A DNA stretch of 64,000 nucleotides, from assembly GCA_041490825.1 (NCBI GenBank), contig JBGPTW010000011.1, forward strand, positions 2,903 through 66,902, written 5' to 3'. Every line of letters begins with the position of its first letter. Position 1 is the stretch's first letter. The notes under the pieces are model-generated. The model was not told the DNA's origin. It ran no database searches and was given only the letters and a program-made list of their open reading frames with translations. The stretch is from Candidatus Methylomirabilia bacterium (GTDB taxonomy: Bacteria > Methylomirabilota > Methylomirabilia > Rokubacteriales > CSP1-6). Shown piece by piece: positions 8,900-52,360 of this stretch. The translations under genes and the position numbers were made by a program.

Positions 8900-10396
8900 A
8901 TGCCCTTGCCGGCCGGCCTCAGGGCGTTGAGCCATCGCGATTTCCGCGTTTTCTGGAGCGGGCAGATCGTGTCGCTGGTCGGAACGTGGATGCAGCGCGT
9001 GGGACAAGCGTGGCTGGTCCTGGAGCTCACGAATTCGGCGTTCAAGCTTGGCATCATCAGCGCGCTCCAGTTCGCGCCCGTGCTGCTCTTCTCCGTCCCC
9101 GCGGGAGCCATCGTGGATCGCGTGCCCAAGCGCCGGCTTCTCGTCGCCACGCAAAGCGTTCTCATGCTGCAGGCGTTCGTGTTGACGGCTCTGGTCTGGA
9201 CGGCCCGTGTGCGCTACTGGCATGTCGCGGTCCTGGCGACCGTCTACGGGCTGGCCAATGCCTTCGACATTCCGACGCGGCAAGCGTTCGTGGCCGACAT
9301 GGTGACGAAGCGGGATCTCATGAACGCGATCGCGCTCAATTCTGCGATGTTCAACGCGGCGCGACTCATCGGTCCCGCCGTGGCCGGCCTGCTCATCGCC
9401 CGGTACGGGCTGGCCCAAGCCTTCTTGCTCAATGCCGTGAGCTTCATCGCGGTCATCGTGGCCCTGTCCTTCCTCCGGGCCGACGGCGCGCCTCATCCAT
9501 CTCCCGGCACGACGATGTTCGAGAAGATCCGGGGCGGCTTGCAGTACGTGGGTGCGACGCCCGTCATCGGGTTCGTCCTCGCCCTGTTGCTGTCGGTCGG
9601 ATTCTTCGTGATCAACTTCAACGTGCTGGTCCCGCTGATCACGAAGCAGGTGCTTCACGCGGGCGCGAGGGAGTTCGGGTGGCTGATGGCGTCACTCGGC
9701 GGTGGAGCGATCGCTGGTGCCCTGTCGCTGGCGTACCTGATCCAGGGGCGGCCGCCGATCGCACTGCCGGTCGCCGCGGGGCTCGCCGTCTCGGCCGGGA
9801 CCATCGTCCTGGCGGCCGTGGAGCGGTTTCCGACTGCGGTCGGCCTGCTCATCGTGATCGGGTTCTCGCAGATCGTGTTCCAGGCGAGCTGCAACACGAT
9901 GCTTCAGGTGACCGTCCCCGATGCGCTCCGGGGACGCATCATGAGCTTCTATGCTCTCGTTTTTGCCGGGGCGACGCCGCTGGGTTCTCTGGCGGTCGGC
10001 TCGATCGCCGAGAAATTCGGAGTTTCGGGGGCGTGTGCGCTTGGCGGCGCGGGCGGCGTGCTCTCCGTGGCGATTCTCACGAGTTTGTGGACATGGGGGC
10101 CCCGACATGGCCCCCATACCCCCCGACGCTCGGGGCGTCCCGGGAAACCCGTGACGCCCCTCGAAAGTGATCGACATGGGGGCCTTGACATACCCCCGAC
10201 GGCTTTGCACAACAAGGCCGGTCACGCCGGGCTTTGTTGTGCAGCCGCCGATCCTGCCGAGAAAATGGCACAGGACCTTGCAGAGCGTCTCATTCACCAT
10301 TGCGGTGTCGCGCTTGCTCCGCAGCGAGTCGCCAAATTTCCGCTTGATCATGCTGAACGCGCTCTCCACGTTCGATCGCTTGTGGTAGTGCTCTAG
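8900..10396 (+). CDS. MFS transporter (MFS_3/DUF894-like) with aberrant repeat-derived C-terminal extension
   Basis: ALSHRDFRVFWSGQIVSLVGTWMQ and DRVPKRRL motifs, ~12 TMs up to ~10090; the frame then reads through a repeat and an IS remnant. Confidence 0.85.
   Translation: MPLPAGLRALSHRDFRVFWSGQIVSLVGTWMQRVGQAWLVLELTNSAFKLGIISALQFAPVLLFSVPAGAIVDRVPKRRLLVATQSVLMLQAFVLTALVWTARVRYWHVAVLATVYGLANAFDIPTRQAFVADMVTKRDLMNAIALNSAMFNAARLIGPAVAGLLIARYGLAQAFLLNAVSFIAVIVALSFLRADGAPHPSPGTTMFEKIRGGLQYVGATPVIGFVLALLLSVGFFVINFNVLVPLITKQVLHAGAREFGWLMASLGGGAIAGALSLAYLIQGRPPIALPVAAGLAVSAGTIVLAAVERFPTAVGLLIVIGFSQIVFQASCNTMLQVTVPDALRGRIMSFYALVFAGATPLGSLAVGSIAEKFGVSGACALGGAGGVLSVAILTSLWTWGPRHGPHTPRRSGRPGKPVTPLESDRHGGLDIPPTALHNKAGHAGLCCAAADPAEKMAQDLAERLIHHCGVALAPQRVAKFPLDHAERALHVRSLVVVL
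10091..10200 (+). repeat. two-hairpin REP-like element, copy 1 plus a truncated second head
   Basis: TGGGGGCC-CCGACAT-GGCCCCCA, then CTCGGGGCGTCCCGGGAAACCCGTGACGCCCCTCGA; partial head at 10167-10200. Confidence 0.9.
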
Positions 10397-10408
10397 AAAT
10401 TCCGCGCG
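10265..10408 (-). pseudogene. C-terminal fragment of an IS4/IS5-superfamily DDE transposase
   Basis: RAEFLEHYHKRSNVESAFSMIKRKFGDSLRSKRDTAMVNETLCKVLCH contains the Y-x2-R-x3-E-x6-K signature; the rest of the gene is absent. Confidence 0.8.
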
Positions 10409-10410
10409 TT

Positions 10411-10660
10411 AAAACATGGCGTCTTCGGAAAGACCGAATTCTTCCAGCGCGATCCCGAGGCGACGGCAGAGATACCACAAAGGTGATCCTAGTCAAACGG
10501 TCTCCGTCTTTAGCTCCCGAGAGGTCGACAAATTCGTCACCGCGAAACAGGTACCTGATTTTTGCGATGCCTCGTGGACCACGTACGCCAGGAGTGGTGC
10601 CAATTTTCCAGCGGTATAGGTCCCCGGTGGCCACTCGGATAAGCGAGGCGAAGAACCTTC
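10411..10660 (-). pseudogene. small frameshifted gene, possible HicA-like partner of the HicB-like gene
   Basis: One frame gives VATGDLYRWKIGTTPGVRGPRGIAKIRYLFRGDEFVDLSGAKDGDRLT; a shifted frame continues SPLWYLCRRLGIALEEFGLSEDAMF*. Confidence 0.4.
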
Positions 10661-10661
10661 T

Positions 10662-11027
10662 CTAGGCAGCCTTGTCGGCGGCTACTCGCAATTCGGGCAT
10701 CTTGATCCTACGAAAGGTAGCTGCCTTCGGTGGGACGAGAGGGATCTTCGATCGCTCAAACATGTCCCAGAATTTCTGCGGCGCTTTCGGTATTCCCTCA
10801 AAGGGGCGCTTACCGAGTTTCTTGCTCGTCGCGAAGTGCCCAACGAGGATCCTCTGGAGTTCGTATGCGAGTTCAGGCACGCTTCTAGCCTGAGCCGCAA
10901 TATCGTACTCCAGGAATTGAGCCGAAAGCCACTCTCCCTCCTGAAAGACGACAGCTCGCAAAGACTTAATGGTGCTCACGCGCGTCGCCTTCCGTCCTTT
11001 CTGCCGCCTCGAGCGGCGTTTCTTCAT
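10662..11027 (-). CDS. HicB-like protein
   Basis: LRAVVFQEGEWLSAQFLEYDIAAQARSVPELAYELQRIL resembles the HicB N-terminal partial RNase H fold. Confidence 0.6.
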   Translation of the reverse strand: MKKRRSRRQKGRKATRVSTIKSLRAVVFQEGEWLSAQFLEYDIAAQARSVPELAYELQRILVGHFATSKKLGKRPFEGIPKAPQKFWDMFERSKIPLVPPKAATFRRIKMPELRVAADKAA

Positions 11028-11081
11028 CCTGCTTCCGGAGACCGGCTTCGGGCACGGCCAACTCCGTCATCCGTTGGACGT

Positions 11082-11132
11082 GCAATGGAGCACGGTGACA
11101 TCACGCTATCGCTCCATGTTGCCATGTGTCAA
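11082..11132 (-). promoter_or_regulatory. sigma70-like promoter with overlapping inverted repeat (operator candidate)
   Basis: Minus strand TTGACA (11132-11127), 18 bp, TAGCGT (11108-11103); inverted repeat GCAATGGAGC ... GCTCCATGTTGC (11082-11122). Confidence 0.5.
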
Positions 11133-11260
11133 CCTTCCCGGGTTAGCGAACATCGCGCCGTTTCGAGCATTTAGGCTGGCACCGCACGCCTTTTTGTCGT
11201 CGAAACCTTCAGCACAGGATCTCTAGGCCGCCGCATCTGACTTTTTGTGCAGCTGCCTGA

Positions 11261-11339
11261 GTGATCGACATGGGGGCCTCGACATGGCCCCCATACCCCC
11301 GACGCTCGGGGCGTACCGGGAAACCCGTGACGCCCCTCG
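11261..11339 (+). repeat. two-hairpin REP-like element, copy 2
   Basis: Near-identical to the copy at 10091-10163. Confidence 0.9.
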
Positions 11340-11352
11340 GTATTCCGAACTT

Positions 11353-12492
11353 TTACCGCCAGAGCTGCGCGGATGCCAGCCTTGCGCCCTCGGCCATCGA
11401 CTTGAACTTGGCCCACGCGATCTCCGGCTCGACCTGAAGATTGGACCGGGCGAACGTTGCGAAGCCGCAGTCGGTGCCCGCGATCACGCGCTCGCGCCCC
11501 ACCACCTCGGCGTAGCGCACGAGGCGCTGCGCCACCAGCTCCGGATGCTCGATGAAGTTCGTCGTGGAGTCGAGCACGCCGGGGATGATCACCTTGTCGT
11601 CCGGTAGACGCACCTCCCGGAACACGGCCCATTCGTGCTCGTGGCGCGGATTGGCGCCTTCGAACGAGATTGCCTGCGGTCGAGCCTTGAGCGCGACGCC
11701 GATGATCTCCCTCAGCGGAATGTCGCGGTGATGCGGACCTTCGTAGTTGCCCCAGCAGAGGTGCATGCGGAGACGGTCGGCCGGAATGTCGCGCAGCGCG
11801 TGATTGAGCGCCTCGACGTTGGCCTCGGCGATCTTCACGAATTCGGCGTTGCTCAACGTCGGAAACGCAAGGTGCCGCCCCATGGCCAGGTCCGGGCAAT
11901 CGACCTGGAGCACGAACCCCGCCCGGTGAATGGCGTCGTACTCGTCCTTCATGACGTCGACGAGGCGCGCGAGATAGGCCTCGCGGCTCGGGTAATGCTC
12001 GTTGCGCAAGAAGTGCGCGATCACGCCCGGCGAGGCGGCCGTCATGAACGCTTCCGTCGCCTGGACTCCCTCGAGCGCTGCGCGAAGGTTCGCGACGTCC
12101 TTCTGCACCGCCGTCCTGTCCTTCCAGTCGATGGCGCCGTTGCACGACGGCCGTGCGACCGCCGAGCGCCGTTCGGCGCGGGCCGCCGCCTCGGGAAAGT
12201 CCGCCCAGTCCGCTCTCATCGGCACCGCGCTCTGTCCGCCGAACCCGGTGAGTCGATGTCGCACGTACGTGGAGTAGCCGACTTTGCCTTGCTCGCCGTC
12301 GTTGACGATATCCACGCCGGCTTCCACCTGCTGCCGGACGACGTCGGCGACGGCGCGGCGCACGCGGGCTTCGAAGCCCGCTGTGTCAGACACGGTCCCG
12401 GCGTCGAGCGCTTCGAGCATCGCGGTCAAATCGTGGGGGCGAGGCAAGCTGCCTGTGTGCGTCGTGAGGATCCGCTCGGTGCTCCGCTTCAT
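11353..12492 (-). CDS. cobalamin-independent methionine synthase II family (MetE C-terminal-like) protein
   Basis: ERILTTHTGSLPRP, VNDGEQGK, Zn ligands MHLCWGN, ISFE, GTDCGF; start ATG 12492. Confidence 0.9.
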   Translation of the reverse strand: MKRSTERILTTHTGSLPRPHDLTAMLEALDAGTVSDTAGFEARVRRAVADVVRQQVEAGVDIVNDGEQGKVGYSTYVRHRLTGFGGQSAVPMRADWADFPEAAARAERRSAVARPSCNGAIDWKDRTAVQKDVANLRAALEGVQATEAFMTAASPGVIAHFLRNEHYPSREAYLARLVDVMKDEYDAIHRAGFVLQVDCPDLAMGRHLAFPTLSNAEFVKIAEANVEALNHALRDIPADRLRMHLCWGNYEGPHHRDIPLREIIGVALKARPQAISFEGANPRHEHEWAVFREVRLPDDKVIIPGVLDSTTNFIEHPELVAQRLVRYAEVVGRERVIAGTDCGFATFARSNLQVEPEIAWAKFKSMAEGARLASAQLWR

Positions 12493-13715
12493 GGCGCCCT
12501 CCGCACCTTCCGCCCTACCGGCGTGTTCTCGAGACCGAAGTACGACAGCATGTTGCCCGCCGCGATCTTGAAGGTCTCGTCCGCCGGCACGCCGGCGAAC
12601 AGCCGTTCGGCGAACGGCCGGGTGTTCGGCCAGTCGCACTCGATGTGCGGAAAGTCCGTCGCGAACATGACGTGATCGACGCCCATGTGGTGACGCAGCT
12701 CGATCGCCACGCGTTCCACGTGCTGCACGCTGAAGTAGATGTGCTGCCGGACGTAGTCGCTGGGTCGCTGCTTCAGCGGCTTGAAGTTGAGCAGACGCTC
12801 GGCCCAGTGGCGATGCCGCTCGTACCAGTAGTCCGCTTCCTCCATCCAGAACGGCACCCAGCCGAGGCGCGTCTCGGCGAAGAAGATCTTCAGATCCGGA
12901 AGGCGATCGAAGACGCCGGACAGGATCATCTGGGCCAGGCTCAGCGATGCCTGCGTGTTCATGAACGGCAGCGCCACCCACTCGACGAGCTTTCGCGGCC
13001 CGAGCTTCGCCAGCACTTGCGGATCCGCGCCCGGGTACTCGAACGTGGGCTGGGCCGCGCGCGGCCCCAGGCGATCGAACCCGACGTGCACGGTGAGCGG
13101 CATCTTCATGTCGATCGCAGTCGTCCAGAAGCGATCGTCTACGGGTGTCGGATAGGACTTGCCGCTGGGGAACACGCCGAGCACGGCGCCCTTCAGGCCG
13201 AGCTTCGCGCAGTGATGGAGCTCGGCGATGGCGTCGTCCAGATTGGTCCACGGGATGACGCCGAGACCGACGAGACGATCGCGCGAGACCGCGCAGTACT
13301 CCTCGCCCAGCCAGTCGTTGTACGCGCGGACCGCGGCGCGGTACGCGGCGTCGTCGGCCATCGAGCGCCAGAGCCGCGGACCGACCTGCATGTTCGGGAA
13401 GAGCACCTCGGCGTCGATGCCGTCGACGTCCTGCTCCTTGATGCGCTGCTCCGGCGGGCCGACGCCGGCGGTGCCCTCGACCGTGACGCCGAACGGTTGC
13501 CAGCTCTCGTTGGTCCGGCCGGCCCGGAGATCGAGAAATGGCACCGGGTATGGCGCCTGTCCCTCGATCAGGATCGCGTCGCCGCCGTCAGGGAGCTTGA
13601 TCGTGCGCGGCGCCGTGTCGCGATACTGCGCCGGCATCCGTCCCGTCCAGCGCTCGGGGCGGACTTCGAGATGGCCGTCGCTGGAGAGCAATGGAGGAAG
13701 CTGAGAGGTCGCCAT
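12489..13715 (-). CDS. amidohydrolase family protein (Amidohydro_2)
   Basis: LSSDGHLEV, QDVDGIDAEVLFP, LTVHVG, FFAETRLGW, MFATDFPHIE. Confidence 0.9.
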   Translation of the reverse strand: MATSQLPPLLSSDGHLEVRPERWTGRMPAQYRDTAPRTIKLPDGGDAILIEGQAPYPVPFLDLRAGRTNESWQPFGVTVEGTAGVGPPEQRIKEQDVDGIDAEVLFPNMQVGPRLWRSMADDAAYRAAVRAYNDWLGEEYCAVSRDRLVGLGVIPWTNLDDAIAELHHCAKLGLKGAVLGVFPSGKSYPTPVDDRFWTTAIDMKMPLTVHVGFDRLGPRAAQPTFEYPGADPQVLAKLGPRKLVEWVALPFMNTQASLSLAQMILSGVFDRLPDLKIFFAETRLGWVPFWMEEADYWYERHRHWAERLLNFKPLKQRPSDYVRQHIYFSVQHVERVAIELRHHMGVDHVMFATDFPHIECDWPNTRPFAERLFAGVPADETFKIAAGNMLSYFGLENTPVGRKVRRAP

Positions 13716-13875
13716 GATGGTTCTCCTGGCTCGCGCCGCGAGGTCGCATCCTCACATTCACGATGCGTCCTGTGGTGACTGTCGACGCCAGGGCGATGGT
13801 CGCGTGGGCCGGCCGGGAGAGTCAAGGGCCATGGTCGAGGCTGCAGCCGACGAAGGCCGGTCTTGTCTCGGCTGG

Positions 13876-15473: not shown

Positions 15474-16617
15474 GCGAGCGCACCACCCACGTGTGCGAAG
15501 CATCGACGCCGAGCACGATCTCGGCGCCTGGGGCCAGCGGCTGGTCAGGTGGCGCATCGACGTTGAAACGTAGCGAGCCGACGTCGACCGTATAGAGATT
15601 GCGCGTTCCGCGGAAGAATCGCTGGCGCACGACGCCGGTCCACGCGATCCCCGGCGCTGATCCGCGGCTGGCGGCACGGCCGAGCTGGATCACTTCAGGC
15701 CTGACGATCACCGTAACGGCCTCACCCGCCTGAATATCGACGGGCACCGAGCACCAGCCGTCCCAGCCCTCGCCCTCGACGCGCGCCAGCGTCGCCTCGC
15801 CCTCTCGGGCGAGCGGCGTCTCGCCCTCTCGGGCGAGCGGCGTCTCGCCCTCTCGGGCGACCTCCCGCACCTTCGCATCCAGGAGATTCGGCGTGCCGAA
15901 GAACGCGGCGACCGTCCTGTTGGCGGGGCGGGCGTAGATGGCCTCCGGCGCCGCGATCTGCAGCACCCGCCCGTCGTGCATGACGGCGATCTCGTCGGAG
16001 AGGACCATCGCTTCTTCCTGGTCGTGCGTGACGTAGACGGTCGTGATGCCGAGCCGCTGCTGGAGCGCGCGGATCTCCACCCGCATCTGCTCGCGTAATT
16101 TCGCGTCGAGGTTCGACAGAGGCTCGTCCATCAGGAGCACGCGGGGGTGGAACACGAGGGCGCGGGCGATCGCGACCCGCTGCTGCTGACCGCCGGAAAG
16201 CGCCGTCGCCGGGCGGGTGGCGAGGTGCTCCATCTCCATGAGCTGAAGCGATGCGAGGACGCGTTCGCGCACCTCGGCGGAGGGGCGCCGGCGGACCTCG
16301 AGCGGGTAGGCGACGTTCTCGAAGACCGTCATGTGCGGCCAGATCGCGTACGACTGGAAGACCATGCCGATCTCGCGGCGCTCCGGCGGCACGAACAGGC
16401 CCGCCGCGGCGTCGCTCACCACCCGGTCGCCGATCTCGATGTAGCCGGTGTCGTTCTGCTCGAGGCCGGCGATCATGCGGAGCGTCGTCGTCTTGCCGCA
16501 GCCCGACGGACCGAGCAGCGTCATGAGGCGGCCGTCAGCAACGGCGAGAGTCACATCCTCGACGGCGCGCACGCCGCCGAAGCGCTTGCTGACGCCCTGG
16601 ACGATCACGCCCGGCAT
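15463..16617 (-). CDS. ABC ATP-binding protein (FbpC/PotA-like)
   Basis: GPSGCGKTT, LSGGQQQRV, MDEPLSNLDAKLR; TOBE tail contains a tandem repeat. Confidence 0.93.
   Translation of the reverse strand: MPGVIVQGVSKRFGGVRAVEDVTLAVADGRLMTLLGPSGCGKTTTLRMIAGLEQNDTGYIEIGDRVVSDAAAGLFVPPERREIGMVFQSYAIWPHMTVFENVAYPLEVRRRPSAEVRERVLASLQLMEMEHLATRPATALSGGQQQRVAIARALVFHPRVLLMDEPLSNLDAKLREQMRVEIRALQQRLGITTVYVTHDQEEAMVLSDEIAVMHDGRVLQIAAPEAIYARPANRTVAAFFGTPNLLDAKVREVAREGETPLAREGETPLAREGEATLARVEGEGWDGWCSVPVDIQAGEAVTVIVRPEVIQLGRAASRGSAPGIAWTGVVRQRFFRGTRNLYTVDVGSLRFNVDAPPDQPLAPGAEIVLGVDASHTWVVRSLTD
15797..15860. repeat. 24-bp in-frame tandem repeat (2.7 copies)
   Basis: TCGCCCTCTCGGGCGAGCGGCGTC repeated; encodes AREGETPL-AREGETPL-AREGEATL. 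Confidence 0.9.
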
Positions 16618-16649
16618 CGTCGTTTCCTCCGCTGGGTCTACTTATTAGC

Positions 16650-16718
16650 TGGGGGCCTCGAAGGCCCCCAGACCCCCAGCCGCTCGCCGGTCGCCGGGAC
16701 ACCCGGCGCCCACCTCGA
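16650..16718 (+). repeat. two-hairpin REP-like element, copy 3 (diverged)
   Basis: TGGGGGCC-TCGAA-GGCCCCCA, GACCCCC, CGCCGGG-ACA-CCCGGCG, CCTCGA. Confidence 0.8.
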
Positions 16719-20378: not shown

Positions 20379-21491
20379 CTAAAGTGTTCCGAGAAACTCC
20401 AGCATCGCGGCATTGACGTCGGCGGGCCGTTCCTGCTGCGTCCAGTGTCCGCATCCCGGAAGGATGATCGTCCGCCGGAGATTGGGGATGAACTGCTTCA
20501 GAGTCGGGAGGAGCTTGTCCATTCCGCGGAACGCGAGCACGAGGTCGCGGTCGCCGGCGACGTAGAGCGCGGGCACGGTCACGTTGGCGTCCGCCCACGG
20601 GGCCATCAGCTCCCAGTTCCGGTCGATGTTGCGGTACCAGTTGAGCCCACCGCGAAATCCCGAGCGCGTGAACTCGCCCGCGTAGAAGTCGACGTCCGCC
20701 TCGGTGAGCCACGCGGGAAGCGTGGCCGGACCGGCGCCGCCCCTGAGGAAGCCGCCGCCGCGGGGGACCATTGGTAGCGGGGGCCGCGTGCTCGGGACCG
20801 GCGCAGGTGGGCTGGATCGAGATGCGCGTGGCTCCGTGGTTCCCGCGGCCGGCACCGGCGCAGGTGGGCTGTATCCAGATGCGCGTGGCTCCGTGGTTCC
20901 CGTGCTCGGGACGACCGATACGGGTGGCTCCGTGCGGCCGCCACGAGGCGCATCGCCGGAGCCCCAGAACAGCATGCTGCGGATGGTGGCACGCGGGTCG
21001 CGCTCGAACTCCGCTTCTGCGACGCCCGGCTCCTGGAAGTAGAGCTGATAGAAGATCGCGTCCTCGGTCCGCGGCATGACGGTCGTGGGCCGTGCCGCGC
21101 GGCGGAGATGGTACGGGACGCTGAGACCGATCACGCCGCGGAAGCGATCGGGACGGAGCAGCGCGGCGTGCCAGGCGACCGGCGCGCCCCAGTCGTGTCC
21201 CGCGATCACCGCGGTCTCGGCCCCGAGCGCGTCCAGCAGGCCGACCATGTCGCCGACGAGATGAAAAAGCGTGTACTGGTCGATAGCGTCCGGACGATCC
21301 GTCTGTCCATAGCCGCGCTGATCGGGTGCGACGGCGTGAAAGCCAGCCTCGGCGAGCACGACGAGCTGATGCCGCCAGGAGTACCAGGATTCGGGGAACC
21401 CGTGGCAGAGGATGACGAGCGGGCCGTCGCCCGCCTCGGCCACGTGCATGCGGATGCCATTGGTCTCGACGAAGCGGTGCTCGATCTCCAT
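20379..21491 (-). CDS. alpha/beta hydrolase, epoxide hydrolase-like
   Basis: HGFPESWYSWRHQ, GHDWGA, GGLNWYRN, GCGHWTQQE; SD GGAGGA before ATG 21491. Confidence 0.9.
   Translation of the reverse strand: MEIEHRFVETNGIRMHVAEAGDGPLVILCHGFPESWYSWRHQLVVLAEAGFHAVAPDQRGYGQTDRPDAIDQYTLFHLVGDMVGLLDALGAETAVIAGHDWGAPVAWHAALLRPDRFRGVIGLSVPYHLRRAARPTTVMPRTEDAIFYQLYFQEPGVAEAEFERDPRATIRSMLFWGSGDAPRGGRTEPPVSVVPSTGTTEPRASGYSPPAPVPAAGTTEPRASRSSPPAPVPSTRPPLPMVPRGGGFLRGGAGPATLPAWLTEADVDFYAGEFTRSGFRGGLNWYRNIDRNWELMAPWADANVTVPALYVAGDRDLVLAFRGMDKLLPTLKQFIPNLRRTIILPGCGHWTQQERPADVNAAMLEFLGTL
20788..20935. repeat. 57-bp in-frame tandem repeat (2 full copies plus a partial)
   Basis: Units 20788-20844 and 20845-20901; encode TTEPRASGYSPPAPVPAAG / TTEPRASRSSPPAPVPSTR. 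Confidence 0.88.
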
Positions 21492-24429: not shown

Positions 24430-25836
24430 ATGACGCAGACCATCTCTGAACGCTCGACCACGACGCCACGCCCGCTCCAGCTTCACGGTCTCTCGGTCGA
24501 GGGCGTCAATCAGTGCGTGCACTGCGGGCTGTGCCTGGCGTACTGTCCGACCTTTTCCGAGCTGGGCACGGAGATGGACTCGCCGCGCGGCCGGATCTTC
24601 CTCATCAAGTCGCTGGCCGAGGGGCGCATCGCGCTGACGGACTCGACCGTCGACCATCTCTCGCTCTGCCTCGACTGCCGCGCGTGCGAGACCGTGTGCC
24701 CGGCCGGCGTGCCGTACGGCCGGCTGATCGAGGCCGCGAAGGCGGAGATCGAGACGCAGCGCCCCGGATCGATGGTGCGTCGTGTGTTCCGCTGGCTGAA
24801 TTTTGGGCTGCTGCTCGAGCATCCCGCGATGCTGCGTGTTGCCGCGACCGCGCTGCGCCTGTATCAGGCGAGCGGGTTGCAGAGCGTCGCGCGTCGGACC
24901 GGCCTCACGCGCCTGCTCCCGGGAACACTGCCCGCGTGGGAGGCGCTGCTGCCGCGCATGCCGTCACGCGCCGAGCGCGCGCCGCTGCCGCCCGTGATGC
25001 CTGCCGACGGGCCCCGACGCTCTCGCGTCGCGATGCTGACCGGCTGCGTGCAGTCCATCGTCTTCGGCGATCACAACCGCGCGACCGCGCGAGTGCTCGC
25101 GAAGAACGGCCTCGAGGTGGTGGTGCCACAGAGCCAGGGCTGCTGCGGCGCGCTCAACGCGCACGGCGGCGATCACGCGCGCGCGGTCGACATGGCGCGG
25201 CGCCTCATCGACGCGTTCGAAAACACGGGCGCCGAGGCGGTCATCGTGAACACGTCCGGTTGCGGCGCGCACATGAAAGCGTATGGCACGCTGCTGGCGG
25301 ACGACCCGCGTTATGCCGCGCGGGCCCAGCGCTTCGCAGCGTCGGTCAAGGACGTCGCGGAGTTCCTCGCGCGCGAACCGTTACGTGGCCCACTCCAGCC
25401 CGTGCCCATGACCGTGACGTATCACGATCCCTGCCACGTCGTGCATGGTCAGAAGATCCAGACGCAGCCACGGCAGCTCCTCGCACAGATTCCGGGACTG
25501 TGTGTCGTCGATCTTCCGGAATCGGACTGGTGTTGCGGCTCGGCGGGCATCTACAACCTCACGCAGCCCGAGATGGCGGGCCGGCTGCTGCACCGAAAGA
25601 TCGGCCACGTGCTCGAGACCGGAGCCGAGGCCGTCGTCACCGCCAACCCCGGCTGCATCTTGCAGATCCAGCAAGGGTTGCAAGCGCACGGCTCGTCCGT
25701 CCGCGTGCTGCACATCGTCGAGATTCTCGATCGGGCTTATCGTCGTGCTGGGGGCCCCGAAATGGCCCCCAGACCCCCAACCCTCGGAGCGCTCCGGGGA
25801 ACCCGTAGCGCTCCTCGACTCCTCCCCCAGCGATGA
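24430..25836 (+). CDS. glcF: glycolate oxidase-type iron-sulfur subunit
   Basis: Two CxxCxxCxxxC motifs, CCG domains (GCCGAL, YHDPCH, CCGSAGIYN); C-terminus derived from a repeat. Confidence 0.92.
   Translation: MTQTISERSTTTPRPLQLHGLSVEGVNQCVHCGLCLAYCPTFSELGTEMDSPRGRIFLIKSLAEGRIALTDSTVDHLSLCLDCRACETVCPAGVPYGRLIEAAKAEIETQRPGSMVRRVFRWLNFGLLLEHPAMLRVAATALRLYQASGLQSVARRTGLTRLLPGTLPAWEALLPRMPSRAERAPLPPVMPADGPRRSRVAMLTGCVQSIVFGDHNRATARVLAKNGLEVVVPQSQGCCGALNAHGGDHARAVDMARRLIDAFENTGAEAVIVNTSGCGAHMKAYGTLLADDPRYAARAQRFAASVKDVAEFLAREPLRGPLQPVPMTVTYHDPCHVVHGQKIQTQPRQLLAQIPGLCVVDLPESDWCCGSAGIYNLTQPEMAGRLLHRKIGHVLETGAEAVVTANPGCILQIQQGLQAHGSSVRVLHIVEILDRAYRRAGGPEMAPRPPTLGALRGTRSAPRLLPQR
25749..25818 (+). 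repeat. two-hairpin REP-like element, copy 4 (inside the glcF coding frame)
   Basis: TGGGGGCC-CCGAAAT-GGCCCCCA; GGAGCGCT...AGCGCTCC; CCTCGA. Confidence 0.9.
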
Positions 25837-34467: not shown

Positions 34468-34473
34468 TCTAAC

Positions 34474-34640
34474 TGGGGGCCCCGACATGGCCCCCAGACC
34501 CCCAACGCTCGTCACGCCCCGGCACAGCCGTGGCGCGCCTCGATATCCCCCAACGCTCGTCACGCCCCGGCACAGCCGTGGCGCGCCTCGATATCCCCCA
34601 ACGCTCGTCACGCCCCGGCACAGCCGTGGCGCGCCTCGAT
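34474..34640 (+). repeat. REP-like element, copy 6: one head plus three tandem 48-bp second hairpins
   Basis: CCCCCAACGCTCGTCACGCCCCGGCACAGCCGTGGCGCGCCTCGATAT repeated three times with no spacers. Confidence 0.93.
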
Positions 34641-38907: not shown

Positions 38908-38910
38908 AGG

Positions 38911-39072
38911 TGGGGGACCCCGAGATGGCCCCCACACCCCCCAGCGCTCGTCGCGTCCCGGCCAAGCCGTGCCGCGCCTCGATGTTCCGAGAGTCGTCAT
39001 GAGGGACCCCGAGATGGCCCCCCGCCTCGATAGTCCGAGGGTTGTCATGGGGGACTCCGAGATGATCCCCCA
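38911..39072 (+). repeat. REP-like element, copy 7: full copy plus two further head hairpins
   Basis: Heads at 38911, ~39000 and ~39048, separated by TGTTCCGAGAGTCGTCA and TAGTCCGAGGGTTGTCA linkers. Confidence 0.85.
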
Positions 39073-39099
39073 CATCCCGCAATCTCGCGGAGATTGCTC

Positions 39100-41771: not shown

Positions 41772-44700
41772 ATGACGTGCCAGCAGTGCCGGTTCGAGAA
41801 TCCCGCCGGGATGCGCTTTTGCGGGCAGTGCGGCGCCCCGCTCGCGCTCCGTTGCCCGCAGTGCGGAGGAGAGGTCCCGCCTCAGTTCAAATTCTGCGGG
41901 CAGTGTGGCGCGAGTCTCGCGCCCGCGCCGGCGCCAGCCGCGCCGGCGCCAGCCGCGCCGGCGCCAGCCGCAACGGCGGCGACCGTCCCGACCGTGTCAC
42001 CGGCGTCACGCCCGGCCGTCACGGCGGTCGCTCCGTCGCCCGGCATCGCCAGCTATACGCCGAAGCACCTGGCCGACAAGATTCTCAAATCGCGATCGGC
42101 GCTCGAAGGGGAACGGCGGCAGGTGACCGTGCTCTTCGGCGACGTCGCCGGCTTCACCACGCTCGCCGAGAAGCTCGATCCCGAAGAGGTCCACCGGATC
42201 ATCAACCATTGCTTCGAGCTGATCACCGCCGAGGTGCATCGCTTCGAGGGCACGATCAATCAGTACACGGGCGACGGGATCATGGCGCTGTTCGGAGCGC
42301 CGATCGCCCACGAGGACAGCCCGCGGCGCGCCGTCCACGCCGCGCTGGGAATCCAGCGCGCGCTGCGCGACTACGCCAAGGAGCTCGAGGCGGAGCGCGG
42401 GCTGACAGTGCAGATGCGCATCGGACTCAACACCGGGCCCGTGGTCGTCGGCAGGATCGGCGACGACTTGCGCATGGACTACACCGCGGTCGGTGACACC
42501 ACGAACCTCGCGGCCCGGATGCAGCAGATCGCGCGGCCGGGCAGCGTGCTGGTGAGCGACGCGACGCACCGGGTGATCGGCGGGTTCTTCGAGACGCTCG
42601 ATCTCGGCGAAGTCCCGATCAAGGGGCACACGCCCGTGCGCGCCTGGGAAGTGTTGCGGGCGCGCGGCATGCGCTCGCGCCTCGACATCGCCGCCGAGCG
42701 TGGACTTACGCCGCTCATCGGTCGCGACCGTGAAGTCTCGACGCTGCTCGACCGTTTCCGCGACGCGAAGGCCGGCCGCGGCCAGGTCGTGTTTCTCGCC
42801 GGCGAGGCCGGGATCGGCAAGTCGCGGCTGCTGCTGGAGTTCCGTCGCCGCCTGGCGGAGGCCGGTGAAAGCGTCACGTGGCTCGAAGGCCAGTGCGTGT
42901 CGTTCGGCCAGTCCATCCCCTTCCTGCCCGTCGTCGATCAGCTGCGCAGGAACTTTGCGATCGAGGAGCTCGACGGCGAGCCCGAGATCATCGCGAAGAT
43001 CGAGCACGGGATGCGGCGCATGGGGCAGCTCGAGCCGCACATTCCGTACGTGCGGTTTCTTCTGTCGGTGGACCCGGGCGACCCGGCCATCGCGGCGATG
43101 GATCCGCTCGCGCGCCGGCGCAAGGTGTTCGATGCGGTCCGCGCGCTGGCCGTAAGAGGCGCTACTCTCAAGCCCGTCGTCTTCGTGTTCGAGGATCTGC
43201 ACTGGGTGGACACGAGCAGCGAGGAGTATCTCGGTGCGCTGATGGACTCCGTCGCGGGGGCGGCGATCGTGCTGGTGATGACGTATCGCGTCGGTTACGC
43301 GCCCCCGTTCGGTGGCCGCAGCTTCCACACGACGCTGACCCTGCAGAACCTCACCGCGGAGGAGACGCTCGCGATGGCGGGGCGGATCCTCGGGACGGAC
43401 CAGTTCCCCGAGCAGGTCAAGGCTGCGCTGATGGACAAGGCCGAGGGCGTCCCGCTGTTCGTCGAGGAAGTGACCAAGACGCTTCTCGATCTCGGCGTGC
43501 TCCGGCGAGAGGGCGCGGGGCTGGCCGTCGCGAAGGGACTCAGCGAGGTGAGCGTGCCCGACACGATGCAGGGCATCATCATGGCGCGGCTCGATCGCCT
43601 CGGCGACGCCGGCAAGCGCACCGTGCAGCTCGCGTCGGTGATCGGCCGGCGATTCCTCGTGCGCCTGCTCGACCGCATCGGCGGCATGCGCGAGCAGCTC
43701 CACGGCCTGCTGGCCGAGCTGAAGGCGCTGGAGATCATCTACGAGCAGGGGCTCCTGCCCGAGCCCGCGTACATCTTCAAGCACGCCGTCATTCAAGACG
43801 TCGCGTACAACAGCCTCCTGAAGGAGCGACGGCGTGAGCTGCATCGCGCCGTCGGTGACGCGATCGAGGAGCTGTACGCCGACCGGCTCTCCGAGCACCA
43901 CGAGGAGCTGGCCCACCACTACGTCAACGGCGAGCAGTGGGCCAAGGCCTTCGACTACCTCGTGAAATCGGGCGACCGCGCCAAGGACGCCTACGCCAAC
44001 CAGCTGGCGCTCGACTTCTACGCCCGCGCCCTCGACGTCGCGTCGCGCACCTCGCCCGCGCTGACGCCCTGGCAAGTGATGGACGTCCATCAGCGGCGCG
44101 GGCGCGTCTGGCTGTTGCTCGCAAAGTACCAGGAGGCGATCGCCGAGTCCCAGCGGATGCTCGAGGTCGCCCGCGCCGCCGGCGATCGGCACGGTGAGGG
44201 CGAAGCGCTGGTGGACCTGGCGCTCGAGCATTACATGACGTTCGCGTCCGAGAACATGCCGCTCACGAAGCGCCTGGCGGAGGAAGCGCTCGCGATCGCC
44301 GAGCAGACCGGCGACCATCCCGTGCTGGCGAAGGCGCGCACCTATCTGGCCTTCCTCGATCAGGTCGAGGGAAATCTCGTCAGCGCGGACCGATTCCTGG
44401 AGGAATCGCTCAGGATCAGCGAGGCGGAGGGGCTGAAGGAATCGATCGCGCAGAACGTGATGTGGCTGAGCGCGCACGCCGAGTGGCGTGGAGACTTTCC
44501 GAGGGCGATCCAGCTCGCGCAGAAAGCCTCGGCGGCGGCGGCGGAAATCCACGACGGCTTCTTCGAGCTCATGGCGATCGCCTTCGGCTGCCTGGCGGAG
44601 GGAGGTGCCGGACATTACGCCGAGGCGCTCGAGCTGATCAACGACGGCTTGACGAAGGCCCGTGACCGGAATGCCGCGTTCTTCCAGGGCCGGCTCGGCA

Positions 44701-46478: not shown

Positions 46479-46715
46479 ATGGGTGATTCACCAATTCAGG
46501 GCTATGAATATCTCGTCACGAATCCCGAACGCCTAGGCGGAAAACCAGCGATCAAGGGAACGCGCTTTTCCGTCTCCTTCATTCTTGCTTGCCTCGCCGA
46601 GGGAATGTCGTACGACGACATCGTGCGTGACTACTCAGAATTTCCGCGTGAGAGCCTCGCCGAGGCGCTTCGCTATGCGGCCGAAGTGACCGACCGGCGT
46701 GATGTGGCTGCTTGA
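46479..46715 (+). CDS. DUF433 family antitoxin
   Basis: NPERLGGKPAIKGTRFSVSFIL, GMSYDDIVRDY. Confidence 0.9.
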   Translation: MGDSPIQGYEYLVTNPERLGGKPAIKGTRFSVSFILACLAEGMSYDDIVRDYSEFPRESLAEALRYAAEVTDRRDVAA

Positions 46716-47037
46716 TGTCAACCTCCCGAATGGTTTGCTGCCCCTGCTCCAGAGCCTTGGGATTTCGTGTGACACGACGATCCGACGCGGCTGGCGCGGG
46801 CTGACCAACGGGGAGCTCGGGAGGGCGGCATACGAAGGGGGCTTCCGGGTCATTCTCACGCGGGATCGTGACTTCGGAGGCACAGCGGGAAGCGTCTTGA
46901 TGCGGTTGCCCGACCTGGCGGTTGTTGTGGTGACGATCCCTCAGGCCCGTGAAGCCGCATATCTGGAAGCCTTTGAAGCGCGTTGGCGCGAGCATGCGAT
47001 CGCTCCGGTAGCGGGATCCATTATCGAGTGGCCGTGA
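46699..47037 (+). CDS. DUF5615 PIN-like toxin
   Basis: WLLDVNLP, RVILTRDRDFG; overlaps the DUF433 gene. Confidence 0.85.
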   Translation: MMWLLDVNLPNGLLPLLQSLGISCDTTIRRGWRGLTNGELGRAAYEGGFRVILTRDRDFGGTAGSVLMRLPDLAVVVVTIPQAREAAYLEAFEARWREHAIAPVAGSIIEWP

Positions 47038-48613: not shown

Positions 48614-48630
48614 GAGTGCCTCGACCCAGA

Positions 48631-48659
48631 TTGACAGGCGTGACACCCCCGGGGACAAT
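48631..48659 (+). promoter_or_regulatory. sigma70-like promoter of the TlpA-peroxiredoxin pair
   Basis: TTGACA, 17 bp, GACAAT, 9 nt before ATG 48669. Confidence 0.6.
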
Positions 48660-48668
48660 GCCTCACTC

Positions 48669-49196
48669 ATGAGGTTGCCACTCTCGCGACTCGTGCTCGT
48701 CCTCGCGGCATGCGCCTTCGCCTTCACCGGCCAGCGTGCCGTGGCGCAAGACTCCGACGTCTTCATCTTGAAGGAGAAGACGCCGGCACCCGCGTTCTCG
48801 CTCCCCGACCTCTCGGGCCAGACCGTCAAGTCCACGGCATTCGCCGGGAAGGTCGCGGTGCTGAGCTTCGGCGCGACCTGGTGCCCCACCTGCACCAGCG
48901 AGCTCAAGAGCCTCGAGAATCTCCAGGCGAAGTTTCCGAAAGATCTCGTGGTCTACTTCGTGGCGCTGGACGGTCGCGGCGACAAGGACGTCAAGCCGTA
49001 CATGGAAAAGAACGGGCACAGGATCCCGACGCTGATCGACCCGAAGATGGCGGTGGCGCGCGAGCACGGGATCCGCTGGATCCCGGTCACCGTGGTGCTC
49101 GACCGTACCGGCGTGATCGTCGGCCGGGCGATCGGCCCGCGTGAATGGGACGGCAAAGAAGCGCTCGACTTCATCCAGCCGCTGATCAAGCGATGA
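48669..49196 (+). CDS. secreted TlpA-like thiol:disulfide oxidoreductase
   Basis: Signal peptide; APAFSLPDL; SFGATWCPTCTSE; IPVTVVLDRTG. Confidence 0.88.
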   Translation: MRLPLSRLVLVLAACAFAFTGQRAVAQDSDVFILKEKTPAPAFSLPDLSGQTVKSTAFAGKVAVLSFGATWCPTCTSELKSLENLQAKFPKDLVVYFVALDGRGDKDVKPYMEKNGHRIPTLIDPKMAVAREHGIRWIPVTVVLDRTGVIVGRAIGPREWDGKEALDFIQPLIKR

Positions 49197-49224
49197 GGAT
49201 TCGATCCGTCACAGGAGGATGCGC

Positions 49225-49779
49225 ATGAGACCTATGCGGTTCGCGATGACCCTGCTCGTGGTGAGCATCATGTTCGCGCTGGCGCTTGCCTCGGCGCTCC
49301 CGGCCGCGGCGCTCGAGGTCGGTGACAAGGCGCCCGACTTCAAGCTGCCGGCGACGACGAAGCCGGAGCTGACGCTGTCCGAATTCGCCGGAAAGAAGAA
49401 CGTCGTGCTCTTCGGCTTCATCGGAGCGTTTACCCCGACGTGAACGCGCGAGGTCGCGGCTTTCCAGCTTGATCTCCCCAAGTTCGAAAGCCGTAACGCC
49501 CAGGTCGTGGGCATCAGCTCGGATTTCCAGCCCGCCAGCGCCGCGTGGAGCGAGAAGATGGGACTCACGTTCCCGCTCGTGAGTGACATGGCGCGCACCA
49601 CGCTCGACGCGTACGGGTTTCTCGACACCGACCCGAAGAGCCGCCTCTACCGCTACGCGAAACGTGCGTACGTCATCGTCGACAAGACGGGCGTCGTTCG
49701 CTACAAAAAGATCCTGGCGACTCCGCGTGATCTCGTGACGGATGACGAGCTTCTCGCGGAACTCGACAAGCTGAAGTAG
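49225..49779 (+). CDS. secreted peroxiredoxin (AhpC/TSA, BCP-like), predicted selenoprotein (in-frame TGA at 49441-49443)
   Basis: VGDKAPDFKL...GAFTPT-TGA-TREVAAFQ...VVGISSD...FPLVSD...RAYVIVDKTG in one frame; TGA at the peroxidatic Cys position. Confidence 0.85.
49457..49493 (+). promoter_or_regulatory. bacterial SECIS-like hairpin of the peroxiredoxin
   Basis: CGGCTTTC-C-AGCTTG-ATCTCCC-CAAGTT-C-GAAAGCCG; stem starts 13 nt after TGA. Confidence 0.6.
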
Positions 49780-49787
49780 GTCACGGA

Positions 49788-49825
49788 CTGTGGGCTCGTC
49801 GGCTGAGCGGCCGATGAGCTCACAG
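49788..49825. terminator. hairpin between convergent genes (terminator candidate)
   Basis: CTGTGGGCTC-GTCGGC-TGAGCG-GCCGAT-GAGCTCACAG; no clear U-tract. Confidence 0.4.
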
Positions 49826-49830
49826 CAGTC

Positions 49831-50820
49831 TCACCGCTTCTCGCGCAGCTTCTCCAGCGATGCTTTGAAGTCCTCGCAGGGGTCCGCGTCGTCGACGCGC
49901 GGGGTGAACCAGACGTAGTCCACCGGCAACGCCGGCCGTCCGAAGCCGGCCGCGTAGTCCTCAGGCTTCCTCGTCTCGCGCTCGACTTCGAGGAATGCCA
50001 TCGTCACCACGATCGCTCCCGGTCGCGCGATCCGCAGATACACCGGAACGCCACGGTCCTTGCGCACGTGACCGAAGCCGGCGATCAGCACGGCGCCGTC
50101 GGGCTCCGACCCCGTGGCCAGGCTGTCCGCGATGTGCGCGTCCCGCACGCGCTGTGTCGTCACCAGGCTGGCGATCGTCGCGTCGCTCCCATGACCACAG
50201 TGCGCGGCCTTGATCTCCTCGGCCATCTCGGCCTGCGTGTCCGCCGCAAGCGGTCGTTCGAGTCCGTAGCGCGCGACGAGCGCTGGATCGAGCGCCGCCA
50301 CGCCGTCGCGCCGCACGGCCGTGACCGTCGATTGCGCCAGGTTCGTCACGATGATGCGCAGCCGCGCCTTGAGCGCCGTGTCCGCGATGGGCTGATAGAG
50401 CGACCAGTCCGGCCAGCCCGAATGCTTCCAGTCCACGGCGTCGGCGAGGCCTGCGGCATCTCCGGGCGCCGTCGCCAGGTACCGCGCGAGCGCCGGTGCC
50501 TGCGCGACGGTCAGCATCTCGAAGCCGATTGCCGGCCGCCGGCCCGCCGCCACCATCCCGACCAGAAGCCACGCCTGAAGCTGGTGATGGTCAGGATTGT
50601 CGTGCTTCTCTCCCAGCAGCACGAACCGGCCGCGCGCGAGTCGGTCGACCAGCGCGGACGGTGAGACGAAGCTCGCCGCCGCGACGTCCCAGATGCGGCC
50701 CGCGAGGACGTGATCACGGCCGAGCGTCGTGCGCCACGACGGAACCGGATCGGTGGCGGCCGCGGCAAGCAGCGCGGGTACGATGAGAACCGCAAGCCAG
50801 CCACGATGGGGGAGCGGCAT
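49831..50820 (-). CDS. ChaN family (heme/iron-regulated, DUF399) protein
   Basis: VLLGEKHDNPDHH, IGFEML, WKHSGWPDWSLYQPI, QRVRDAHIA, LIAGFGHVRKDRGVP; start 50820 or 50835. Confidence 0.85.
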   Translation of the reverse strand: MPLPHRGWLAVLIVPALLAAAATDPVPSWRTTLGRDHVLAGRIWDVAAASFVSPSALVDRLARGRFVLLGEKHDNPDHHQLQAWLLVGMVAAGRRPAIGFEMLTVAQAPALARYLATAPGDAAGLADAVDWKHSGWPDWSLYQPIADTALKARLRIIVTNLAQSTVTAVRRDGVAALDPALVARYGLERPLAADTQAEMAEEIKAAHCGHGSDATIASLVTTQRVRDAHIADSLATGSEPDGAVLIAGFGHVRKDRGVPVYLRIARPGAIVVTMAFLEVERETRKPEDYAAGFGRPALPVDYVWFTPRVDDADPCEDFKASLEKLREKR

Positions 50821-50959
50821 GGAGTCAGGATGCACCGGAAGAGACCTGCGCGCCGGCGGAATAGCTGCGCGCCGTCACCGCCAGGACTAGAATCGGACGT
50901 CGTGCGAATTCGGAGCCGGCGGTCCGGGAGGACTGGCGGTCCGACATGAGGGACTCAGC

Positions 50960-52135
50960 ATGGAGAAATTCCGCGGCGTCGATTACTACGGGATCGAAGA
51001 CCTCCTCTCCGAGGAGGAGCGCATGGTGCGTGACGCCGTGCGCGACTGGGTCGAAGTGGAGTTCTTGCCGGTCGTCATCGAGCACCATCGGGCCGGCACG
51101 TTTCCGACCGAGCTGACGCCAAAGCTCGGCGAGCTCGGCATCTTCGGTGCCACGCTGAAAGGCTACGGGTGCGCCGGGCTCAACAACGTCGCCTACGGTC
51201 TCATCATGCAGGAGCTGGAGCGCGGGGACTCCGGGCTGCGCTCCTTCGCGTCCGTGCAGAGCGGGCTCGTCATGCATCCCATCCACGCCTACGGGTCCGA
51301 CGCGCAGAAGGACCGCTGGCTTCCGCGCCTCGCGACCGGTGAGCAGCTCGGGTGCTTCGGTCTCACCGAGCCCGATTACGGCTCCGATCCGGGCGGGATG
51401 AAGACGCGCGCGAGCAAGAAGGGCGACGCCTACGTGCTGAACGGCACCAAGCTCTGGATCACCAACGGGTCGATCGCCGACGTCGCGGTGGTCTGGGCCA
51501 AGGAAGACGACGGCGAGATCTACGGGTTCCTCGTCGAGCGGGGCACACCAGGATTCTCGACGCTCGACATCCACGGCAAGTTCTCGATGCGCGCCTCGAT
51601 CACCTCCGAGCTGGCGTTCCAGGACTGCAAGATCCCGCTCGAGAACAAGTTGCCCAACGTCAAGGGCCTGCGCGGTCCGCTCGGCTGTCTCAATCAGGCG
51701 AGGTACGGGATCGCGTGGGGCGCCATCGGGGCCGCCATGGCGTGCTACGACTGGTCGCTGCAGTACGCCCAGCAGCGCATCCAGTTCGGCAAGCCGATCG
51801 CCTCGTTCCAGCTCGTGCAGCAGAAGCTCGTGTGGATGATCACCGAGATCACGAAGGCGCAGCTCCTGTGCCTCCAGCTCGGCCGATTGAAGGACGCCGG
51901 CAAGCTGCGTCCCCAGCAGGTCTCGATGGCGAAACGTAACAACGTGCAGATGGCCCTCGACACGGCGCGCCTGGCGCGTGACATCATGGGCGCCGCCGGC
52001 ATCGTGGACGAGCACCCGATCATCCGCCATCTGCTGAACCTCGAGACCGTCAACACTTACGAGGGCACGCACGACATCCACACGCTGATCATCGGCCGGG
52101 ACATCACGGGGCTCGACGCGTTTTCAATTAGCTGA
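50960..52135 (+). CDS. gcdH: acyl-CoA dehydrogenase, glutaryl-CoA dehydrogenase-like
   Basis: ELERGDSGLRSFASVQSGL, FGLTEPDYGSDPGGM, TYEGTHDIH. Confidence 0.88.
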   Translation: MEKFRGVDYYGIEDLLSEEERMVRDAVRDWVEVEFLPVVIEHHRAGTFPTELTPKLGELGIFGATLKGYGCAGLNNVAYGLIMQELERGDSGLRSFASVQSGLVMHPIHAYGSDAQKDRWLPRLATGEQLGCFGLTEPDYGSDPGGMKTRASKKGDAYVLNGTKLWITNGSIADVAVVWAKEDDGEIYGFLVERGTPGFSTLDIHGKFSMRASITSELAFQDCKIPLENKLPNVKGLRGPLGCLNQARYGIAWGAIGAAMACYDWSLQYAQQRIQFGKPIASFQLVQQKLVWMITEITKAQLLCLQLGRLKDAGKLRPQQVSMAKRNNVQMALDTARLARDIMGAAGIVDEHPIIRHLLNLETVNTYEGTHDIHTLIIGRDITGLDAFSIS

Positions 52136-52360
52136 GGGGCCACGAAATGGCCCCTCAGACTCCCCCACGCTCGGGACGCCCCGGGACACCCGTGGCGCCC
52201 CTCGACCCCCCACGCTCGGGGCGTCGCGGGACACCCGCGACGCCCCTCGACCTTTCCCCACGGTCGGGACGCCCCGGGACACCCGCGACGCCCCTCGACA
52301 CTCCCCCACGCTCGGGGCGCCCCGGGACACCCGCGACGCCCCTCGACCCTCCCCCACGGT
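52133..52360 (+). repeat. REP-like element, copy 8: one head plus four tandem second hairpins
   Basis: Units end at 52205, 52250, 52298 and 52346 (periods 45, 48, 48); unit 2 has a perfect 13-bp stem. Confidence 0.93.

Follow-up and report, generated by a model that had tools for sequence, protein, structure and literature searches.

A modular two-hairpin repeat dispersed at gene ends in Rokubacteria

Repetitive extragenic palindromic (REP) sequences are stem-loops of 20-40 bp that occur in high copy number, carry a GTAG/CGTC tag at the foot of the stem, and are found mainly between unidirectional or convergent open reading frames (ORFs) (PMC3733652). Bacterial interspersed mosaic elements (BIMEs) and REPINs are organized as inverted doublets (PMC6006769), and the BOX element of pneumococci has the composition boxA-boxB(n)-boxC (PMC3049150). 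The repeat we investigated contains two hairpins and is dispersed over a stretch of 64,000 nucleotides (the window) from contig JBGPTW010000011.1 of a Candidatus Methylomirabilia bacterium. It is a new family of a known kind, the small interspersed hairpin repeats, and works like REP or BOX elements but is a member of neither. The explanation we consider probable is that its copies are lineage-restricted, small, modular, non-autonomous interspersed repeats of Rokubacteria (Methylomirabilota) that behave like REP/BIME or pneumococcal BOX elements.

The repeat unit and its relation to described elements

A reading of the window from its letters alone (the sequence-only reading) had reported an element of about 72 bp at eight loci. 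All eight were recovered where that reading had placed them, every one on the plus strand, and a covariance model (R1, run with filters off on both strands) scores them at 55-90 bits (E 5e-17 to 7e-10). The stems it had quoted for the second hairpin are exact (GGGGCGTC/GACGCCCC at E1, GGAGCGCT/AGCGCTCC at E4, and GGAGCGCC/GGCGCTCC at E5), as are the inner stems CGGG/CCCG versus CGGC/GCCG and the heads TGGGGG/CCCCCA versus TGAGGGG/CCCCTCA. The length needs revision: the element is a modular unit of about 87-90 bp, lead-in included, which also forms tandem arrays. The R1 matches on the minus strand of the window reach at most 21.6 bits and all coincide with the same eight loci, as palindromic shadows; neither R1 without filters nor nhmmer at E<=10 found an independent minus-strand copy in the window, and no copies were found in the other 10 kb of the source contig. 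The window also forms part of a JGI metagenome contig of 77.8 kb. With hidden Markov models built from the alignment of the copies, the window yields 9 heads and 10-12 modules of the second hairpin, every one on the plus strand. A strict pattern of head and linker matches six times in the window versus 0 times in 100 shuffles, and a looser head pattern 23 times versus 4.2 expected. The copies, with H1 denoting the head hairpin and H2 the second hairpin, are as follows:

10080-10164 (+), E1: lead-in, head H1 (10093-10117), C-run linker, H2 (10132-10160) and TCGA; R1 89.9 bits; within the 3' end of the MFS_3 ORF 8900-10396
10165-10207 (+), partial second unit after E1: lead-in AAGTGATCGAC and a head with a 9-nt deletion (partial head 10177-10207)
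11259-11340 (+), E2: full unit, 95% identical to E1; R1 80.2 bits; 13 nt from the stop of a minus-strand MetE-like gene (11353..)
16646-16718 (+), E3: divergent unit with a 5-nt head loop; R1 55.2 bits; between two minus-strand genes (ABC_tran start 16617; enoyl-CoA hydratase stop 16757), antisense to transcription
25746-25818 (+), E4: in the 3' end of a GlcF-like ORF (24430-25836), giving it a 26-codon tail; R1 83.6 bits
30157-30236 (+), E5: fills the gap between two convergent stops (30156, 30237) exactly; R1 82.2 bits
34471-34640 (+), E6: head (34473-34497) and three identical 48-bp linker+H2 modules (34499-34640); R1 81 bits; between two minus-strand genes
38908-39075 (+), E7: head and H2, a second head with H2 deleted, and a third, degenerate head; R1 76.1 bits; in the 186-nt gap between the glucose-1-P thymidylyltransferase stop (38907) and the rmlC start (39094)
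52132-52358 (+), E8: head and 4.2 tandem 48-bp modules with swapped arms (modules 52160-52358); R1 78.8 bits

Each unit consists, in this order, of an AT-rich lead-in of about 11 nt, the head hairpin, a C-run linker, the 29-nt second hairpin and CCTCGA. The head reads (T)G5-6CC, a 7-nt loop and GGC5-6(A); it is followed by A-N-A and the C-run, then by (A/G)NCGCTCG and the second hairpin. The head stem of 9-10 bp is near-invariant and its loop CCGANAT is conserved, N being the sole free position, whereas the second hairpin has a 13-bp stem capped by a 3-nt loop. The head of E5 is the variant TGAGGGGCC/GGCCCCTCA. The lead-in is rich in stop codons, and it is AT-rich despite a genome of 67-72% GC. 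Its composition profile is alike whether the gene to the left is sense or antisense, and in E8 it lies clearly within the inserted DNA; we therefore count it as part of the unit. We ruled out a promoter in the TTGACA-like lead-in, as no -10 element was found at the proper spacing from it. On paper, the G-rich strand could also form a G-quadruplex, which would compete with the head stem.

The unit grows by direct tandem repetition, either of the 48-bp module of linker and hairpin or of the whole unit with a period of 84-90 bp; the modules of E6 and E8 were delimited with Tandem Repeats Finder. With H for the head and m for the module, the architectures over all data are Hm (73), H (35), HmHm (6), HmH (6) and HmHmHm (4), in addition to Hmmm. 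The three heads of E7 lie at 38910, 38999 and, for the degenerate one, 39047. In E8 the third module has its 5' arm from module 1 and its 3' arm from module 2, and modules 3 and 4 no longer pair perfectly. These swapped arms point to unequal crossing-over within arrays. The 95% identity of E1 and E2 marks them as local duplicates and not as independent copies; on average the window copies are 74% identical to each other.

The repeat shares several traits with REPs. Its head is a stem-loop of 25-31 nt, found nine times in 64 kb and with 170 matches in about 1 Mb of Rokubacteria DNA, and it lies at co-directional and convergent junctions and avoids promoters (counts below). As with REPs, BIMEs and REPINs, some copies occupy ORF ends, the distribution is lineage-specific and patchy, and movement in trans as single strands is presumed. 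However, no conserved GTAG/CGTC tag is found beside H1; among the eight window copies, just E1 and E2 have GACG (complementary to CGTC) before H2, and these columns are variable in the alignment. The unit also differs from a REP in holding two unlike hairpins, and in contrast to the inverted doublets of BIMEs and REPINs the clusters are direct head-to-tail arrays (HmHm, HmHmHm, Hmmm; periods 48 and 84-90 bp). Close inverted pairs are rare. We saw one, in locus L046 (4945-5260), where two copies stand head-to-head about 105 nt apart; the second hairpin of the minus-oriented copy is enlarged by nested GTGCGTCCGNGCAC repeats.

The likeness to BOX elements is one of construction. Both have an internal module of about 45-48 bp that folds alone and is present in zero to several tandem copies, in our case a head with 0-4 modules; both are enriched downstream of genes, and a transposase is known for neither. 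Nevertheless, the two have no sequence similarity, and the Rokubacteria repeat, which is high in GC and belongs to a different phylum, does not have terminal inverted repeats that pair its ends. A distinct 3' end module was seen only as a truncated next unit. Palindrome-associated transposable elements (PATEs) derived from IS200/IS605 are likewise hairpin-based, without target duplication and with strand-specific structure. On its G-rich strand the repeat has a hairpin near the end and then an AT-rich tail of the type TCAA, an arrangement that resembles the right end of IS608. In contrast to PATEs, the two hairpins are unlike, a fixed target tetranucleotide is not established, and TnpA was not found in the sampled DNA of about 1 Mb, which represents less than 1% of the genomes concerned. 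The absence of terminal inverted repeats, and of target-site duplications at five filled/empty junctions, sets the repeat apart from miniature inverted-repeat transposable elements. A CRISPR array was ruled out by spacing, content and the mixed orientation elsewhere. An integron attC array was ruled out as well: the spacers are 1-13 kb of housekeeping genes syntenic with relatives, and orientation is mixed elsewhere.

Insertion sites and taxonomic range

Comparison with syntenic relatives reveals what the sites looked like without the repeat. Three Rokubacteria lineages (L205-L214), whose proteins are 81-85% identical to those of the window, share with it glcDEF, MoCF, the rml genes, HD and the acyl-CoA dehydrogenase. 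At the E7 site, 5-12 nt separate the thymidylyltransferase stop from the rmlC start in all three, versus 186 nt in the window. At the E4 site, the GlcF-like proteins of relatives have 443 or 417 amino acids and end in DRAYGG(DRG), versus 468 in the window, where the last 26 codons are E4 translated in frame. At the E8 site, the acyl-CoA dehydrogenase ends in DAFN in a relative and in DAFSIS in the window; the 5' arm of the E8 head, CTGAGGGGCC, includes the TGA stop (52133-52135) of this gene. Because the E4, E7 and E8 sites are empty in syntenic relatives, these copies are insertions. Two more filled/empty pairs were found between metagenome-assembled genomes (MAGs; L092/L024 and L083/L096), and one pair has its upstream gene running in antisense across the entire element.

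Other ORFs are distorted as well. The MFS_3 ORF continues through E1 into an insertion sequence (IS) remnant, although its domain ends near 10079, and the metagenome annotation puts the start of the UDG gene (52147-52920) inside the E8 array, although the UDG domain begins near 52408. The partial second unit 3' of E1 ends where an insert of about 1 kb with lower GC content starts (10211-11260), which has no clear gene and reaches to E2. A C-terminal piece of a transposase of the DDE_Tnp_1 (IS4/IS5) type, 53 amino acids long (E = 6e-5), is encoded in this insert on the minus strand at 10250-10408, and the inverted repeat TGCACAACAA/TTGTTGTGCA, of 10 nt, lies at 10206-10246. REP-targeting IS elements insert into repeat arrays, and the stretch looks like an IS remnant inserted into an array of this repeat.

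A family scan with the pattern of head and linker, using one genome per species, gave at least 117 blocks of 8 kb. Among the matches listed, 115 of the 117 blocks hold a bona fide copy, and almost all come from MAGs of Candidatus Rokubacteria, Rokuibacteriota or Methylomirabilota, in at least about 45 assemblies. No match was found in 796 kb of other soil taxa (80 metagenome loci); this control was retrieved with the Pyr_redox_2 protein that adjoins E5, and it consists of relatives with at most 71% identity, from other taxa, without orthologous sites. Full or partial copies also occur in MAGs labeled Candidatus Acidoferrum, Acidobacteria and Nitrosotalea (L013, L064, L026, L066, L120); mis-binned Rokubacteria contigs are a more likely source of these than true presence in those taxa. 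Within Rokubacteria the distribution is uneven. No copy is present in about 150 kb (63 kb non-redundant) of DNA from the three syntenic lineages, and given their long synteny with the window, the abundance of the repeat differs sharply between fairly close lineages. The window has one cluster per 8 kb, versus one further cluster per 44 kb in the blocks with the retrieving copy excluded, so the window lineage is unusually rich in the repeat.

Rfam has no match at gathering score over the window. When E5 and E8 were run at an E-value threshold, the best matches reached at most 17 bits versus cut-offs of 32-114, and we dismissed these weak matches (Guanidine-II, sucA, BjrC68) as chance level. The literature searched gave no account of repeats in Rokubacteria. 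The proposal that this is an uncatalogued, REP-like dispersed hairpin repeat is thus borne out, and to judge from that search it is the first interspersed repeat family described for Rokubacteria, a phylum of uncultured soil bacteria with large genomes. The repeat breaks short-read assemblies and misleads gene callers, as in the lengthened MFS and GlcF ORFs and the UDG start called in an array. It rewrites the 3' ends of genes and operon junctions, and it has potential as a strain marker. As a natural data set on hairpin covariation the family is clean and bears a strand signature, and it could aid the search for the enzyme that moves tag-less REP-like elements.

Pairing, placement, orientation and competing explanations

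Covariation was assessed in a MAFFT alignment of 106 distinct copies, not fitted to the structure, over two helices with 23 pairs. Paired cells make up 89.6% versus 79.6% in shuffles, and cells changed on both sides number 231 versus 76.5 +/- 6.2. Covariation scores 0.211, against 0.058 for shuffles and no more than 0.042 for controls in which partners are slid by 1-3 columns. At the inner pair of the second hairpin 63 copies have C-G and 39 have G-C, and the outer three pairs of the head are Watson-Crick in 83, 68 and 47% of copies versus 39, 40 and 21% expected from marginal frequencies. The covarying stems that had been proposed are thereby upheld for both hairpins, beyond shuffled and slid controls, and we infer that their base pairing is under selection. 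The TGAGGGG/CCCCTCA head is found among the 106 copies only in E5 and E8.

The mismatches differ between strands. On the C-rich strand, as the repeat was described, A.C occurs 58 times versus 7 times for G.T, and pyrimidine-pyrimidine mismatches are common; read on the complementary, G-rich strand, the same mismatches are G.T wobbles and G.A pairs. G.U pairs on the described strand occupy 7 of 2386 cells. The G-rich strand is the more stable one in 97-99 of the 106 units with RNA or DNA parameters, and the predicted fold has about -43 to -47 kcal/mol per unit. The mismatch pattern suggests that the G-rich complement is the strand that folds. The bias is alike in sense, antisense and convergent contexts, which argues against selection on co-transcribed mRNA and is suggestive of a strand-specific role as DNA, or as independently made RNA.

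Placement was analyzed with a codon-usage gene caller trained on these data, which reproduces the metagenome annotation where compared. With the element as reference, 47 cases have sense-sense flanking genes, 43 antisense-antisense, 38 convergent and 6 divergent. Junctions with the element are co-directional, convergent and divergent in 90, 36 and 5 cases, versus 556, 59 and 96 without it (p = 1e-10); convergent gaps are enriched about 3.3-fold and divergent gaps, which are the longest, are depleted about 3.5-fold. The medians of element-free gaps are 10 nt for co-directional and 14 nt for convergent junctions, and gaps this short suffice for copies to abut stop codons, start codons and ribosome-binding sites tightly. 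In 60 of the 80 cases with a sense upstream gene, the stop codon overlaps the head or is at most 15 nt away from it; a target preference for stop codons was set aside, as it is inseparable from element-free gaps being just 10-14 nt. An asymmetry in distance between head and tail vanishes when a tail of about 25 nt is counted as element. The near equality of 47 sense and 43 antisense cases in co-directional gaps bears out the claim that orientation is independent of transcription.

All eight window loci have the same orientation although their flanking genes are mixed. E1 and E2 being duplicates, this leaves seven independent loci and p of about 0.008-0.016. The window copies differ among themselves (74% identity) as much as they differ from those of other genomes, and the uniformity is therefore not the result of a recent local burst. 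In other Rokubacteria contigs, adjacent clusters are in the same orientation in 13 cases and in opposite orientation in 13. A count by hand gave 9:9 for robust head-head pairs no more than 100 kb apart, with palindromic shadows and clusters that consist of modules only left out. At least eight opposite pairs lie within 8 kb (e.g., L075, L042, L089, L007, L112, L113). In 97 blocks oriented by the element, the mean GC skew is -0.004 to -0.005 (p 0.013-0.037; 57-59 blocks negative), and this shift persists with 200 nt masked around the copies and with genes only; the GC skew of the window, +0.009, has the opposite sign. The 13:13 ratio and the close opposite pairs exclude a strict replichore rule for the family. 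The sequence-only reading had proposed a REP-like mobile or structured element whose orientation follows the replichore; its REP-like, structured and transcription-independent character stands, but the replichore orientation is not supported by related genomes. Of the relation between orientation and GC skew only a weak shift is left, and a bias of about 60:40 may exist.

Our preferred explanation, a small non-autonomous repeat of Rokubacteria, has the following parts. Copies have inserted into very short gaps at gene ends, often replacing the native stop or extending the upstream ORF, and have then grown as the 48-bp module or the entire unit was duplicated in direct tandem. Co-directional and especially convergent junctions tolerate them, and the gaps of divergent promoters are almost free of them. 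The invariant loop has the look of a site that a protein recognizes, which suggests that copies are spread in trans by an enzyme specific for the folded head on single-stranded DNA. Orientation would be fixed at insertion and has no tie to transcription nor, in relatives, to the replication arm; the hairpins, once transcribed, would as a side effect provide stable structures between cistrons or at 3' ends. Several observations weigh against this explanation. The covariation controls do not correct for the genealogy of the copies, and some compensated variants, such as the TGAGGGG/CCCCTCA head of E5 and E8, were simply copied; arms have been shuffled within arrays and pairing was lost in modules 3-4 of E8, which implies weak selection on every module. 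The strand asymmetry is taken as suggestive, since it depends on few subfamily-defining positions, so that the counts are not independent events, and since the 3-nt loops of the C-rich strand are mostly GNA closed by C-G, favoring the other strand than the mismatches do. Such triloops are very stable in DNA. No homologue of a REP-associated tyrosine transposase (RAYT) or Y1 transposase was found in the sampled DNA, in which a single-copy gene would rarely be included; a phmmer search with E. coli RayT against its 7973 ORFs gave no match, and the ORFs between inverted pairs are ordinary genes without a RAYT. Clustering revealed no recurrent neighboring protein family, only large paralogous ones. 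No clear target-site duplication is seen at the five filled/empty junctions, and the AT-rich lead-in and the CCTCGA/tail are not inverted copies of each other. Finally, the explanation leaves the co-orientation of 8 of 8 window loci to chance (about 1/64 to 1/128).

An alternative explanation is that the repeat is primarily a host-selected RNA element, a 3'-end or intercistronic hairpin whose function is to end transcription or to protect mRNA, with mobility being secondary. The enrichment at convergent junctions, the depletion of promoter gaps, the proximity of stops to the head and the very stable folds are all compatible with this, and REPs and BOX elements are reported to act in this way (PMC3733652, PMC3049150). 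However, we consider it unlikely, as sense and antisense copies are about equally frequent and yet the mismatches favor the same DNA strand in both, which is unexpected under selection on mRNA. The described strand has almost no G.U pairs, the corresponding junctions of syntenic relatives are free of the element, and no T-run or U-tract was found 3' of either hairpin on either strand, which also rules out an intrinsic terminator. The repeat might instead serve a nucleoid or topology protein, as its double-stranded binding site or as a cruciform, the site being the palindrome GGGGCC-N7-GGCCCC. BIMEs play such a part for gyrase and IHF. In about 45 assemblies the head core is invariant, as are most positions of the loop, with one loop position free, and orientation is indifferent to transcription. 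Nevertheless, a duplex site would not yield strand-asymmetric mismatches, does not need compensatory changes in the outer stem and H2, and sits poorly with related lineages that are entirely without the element; we regard it as very improbable.

A further alternative, in line with the sequence-only reading, is that the repeat is a single-stranded DNA element moved by an enzyme of the HUH/RAYT type and inserted at the replication fork, such that its orientation marks the replichore. Eight loci (nine heads) over 74.5 kb of contig point the same way with mixed flanking genes and without a recent local burst, the hairpins favor one strand whatever the transcription, the 97 blocks have a weak association with GC skew, and targeting of the lagging-strand template is documented for IS200/IS605 (PMC6006769). 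The even split of adjacent copies elsewhere, with many opposite pairs within 8 kb, speaks against it, as do the skew of the window, which opposes the trend of the blocks, and the 47:43 ratio of sense to antisense, which does not have the excess that strong leading-strand coupling should give. There is also neither a GTAG/CGTC tag nor an organization in inverted doublets, and the sampled DNA gave no Y1 transposase. This makes a replichore marker quite unlikely, and the repeat currently provides no evidence for a replication-oriented element. A more speculative variant, for which we hold out little expectation, is that in this lineage an unrecognized single-strand-specific enzyme actively spreads the repeat and inserts the G-rich folded strand at the fork beside stop codons; this would give the local co-orientation (8/8), and the mixed orientation elsewhere would be due to older, decayed or differently mobilized copies. 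If true, it would be a REP-like system outside the world of GTAG/CGTC tags and RAYTs, in an uncultured phylum.

Other features in and near the window

Three coding tandem repeats in the window are unrelated to the hairpin repeat: 24 bp x 3 in an ABC ATPase gene (15788-15860), 57 bp x 2.2 in the gene at 20379-21491 (20784-20909), and 15 bp x 3.3 with 100% identity near the start of a gene for a 1202-amino-acid adenylate-cyclase/AAA_16/TPR protein (41923-41971). Toxin-antitoxin-like genes are found at 46479-47037 and 53180-53665; they comprise a DUF433/DUF5615 pair and, preceded by a small ORF, a PIN-domain gene. Beyond the end of the window, a defense island without the repeat (L202 10963-18530, corresponding to about 64108-71675 in window coordinates) encodes HsdM, HsdS, DUF1016/YhcG, an AAA_13 ATPase and AbiEi/AbiEii, of which HsdM and HsdS constitute a type I restriction-modification system.

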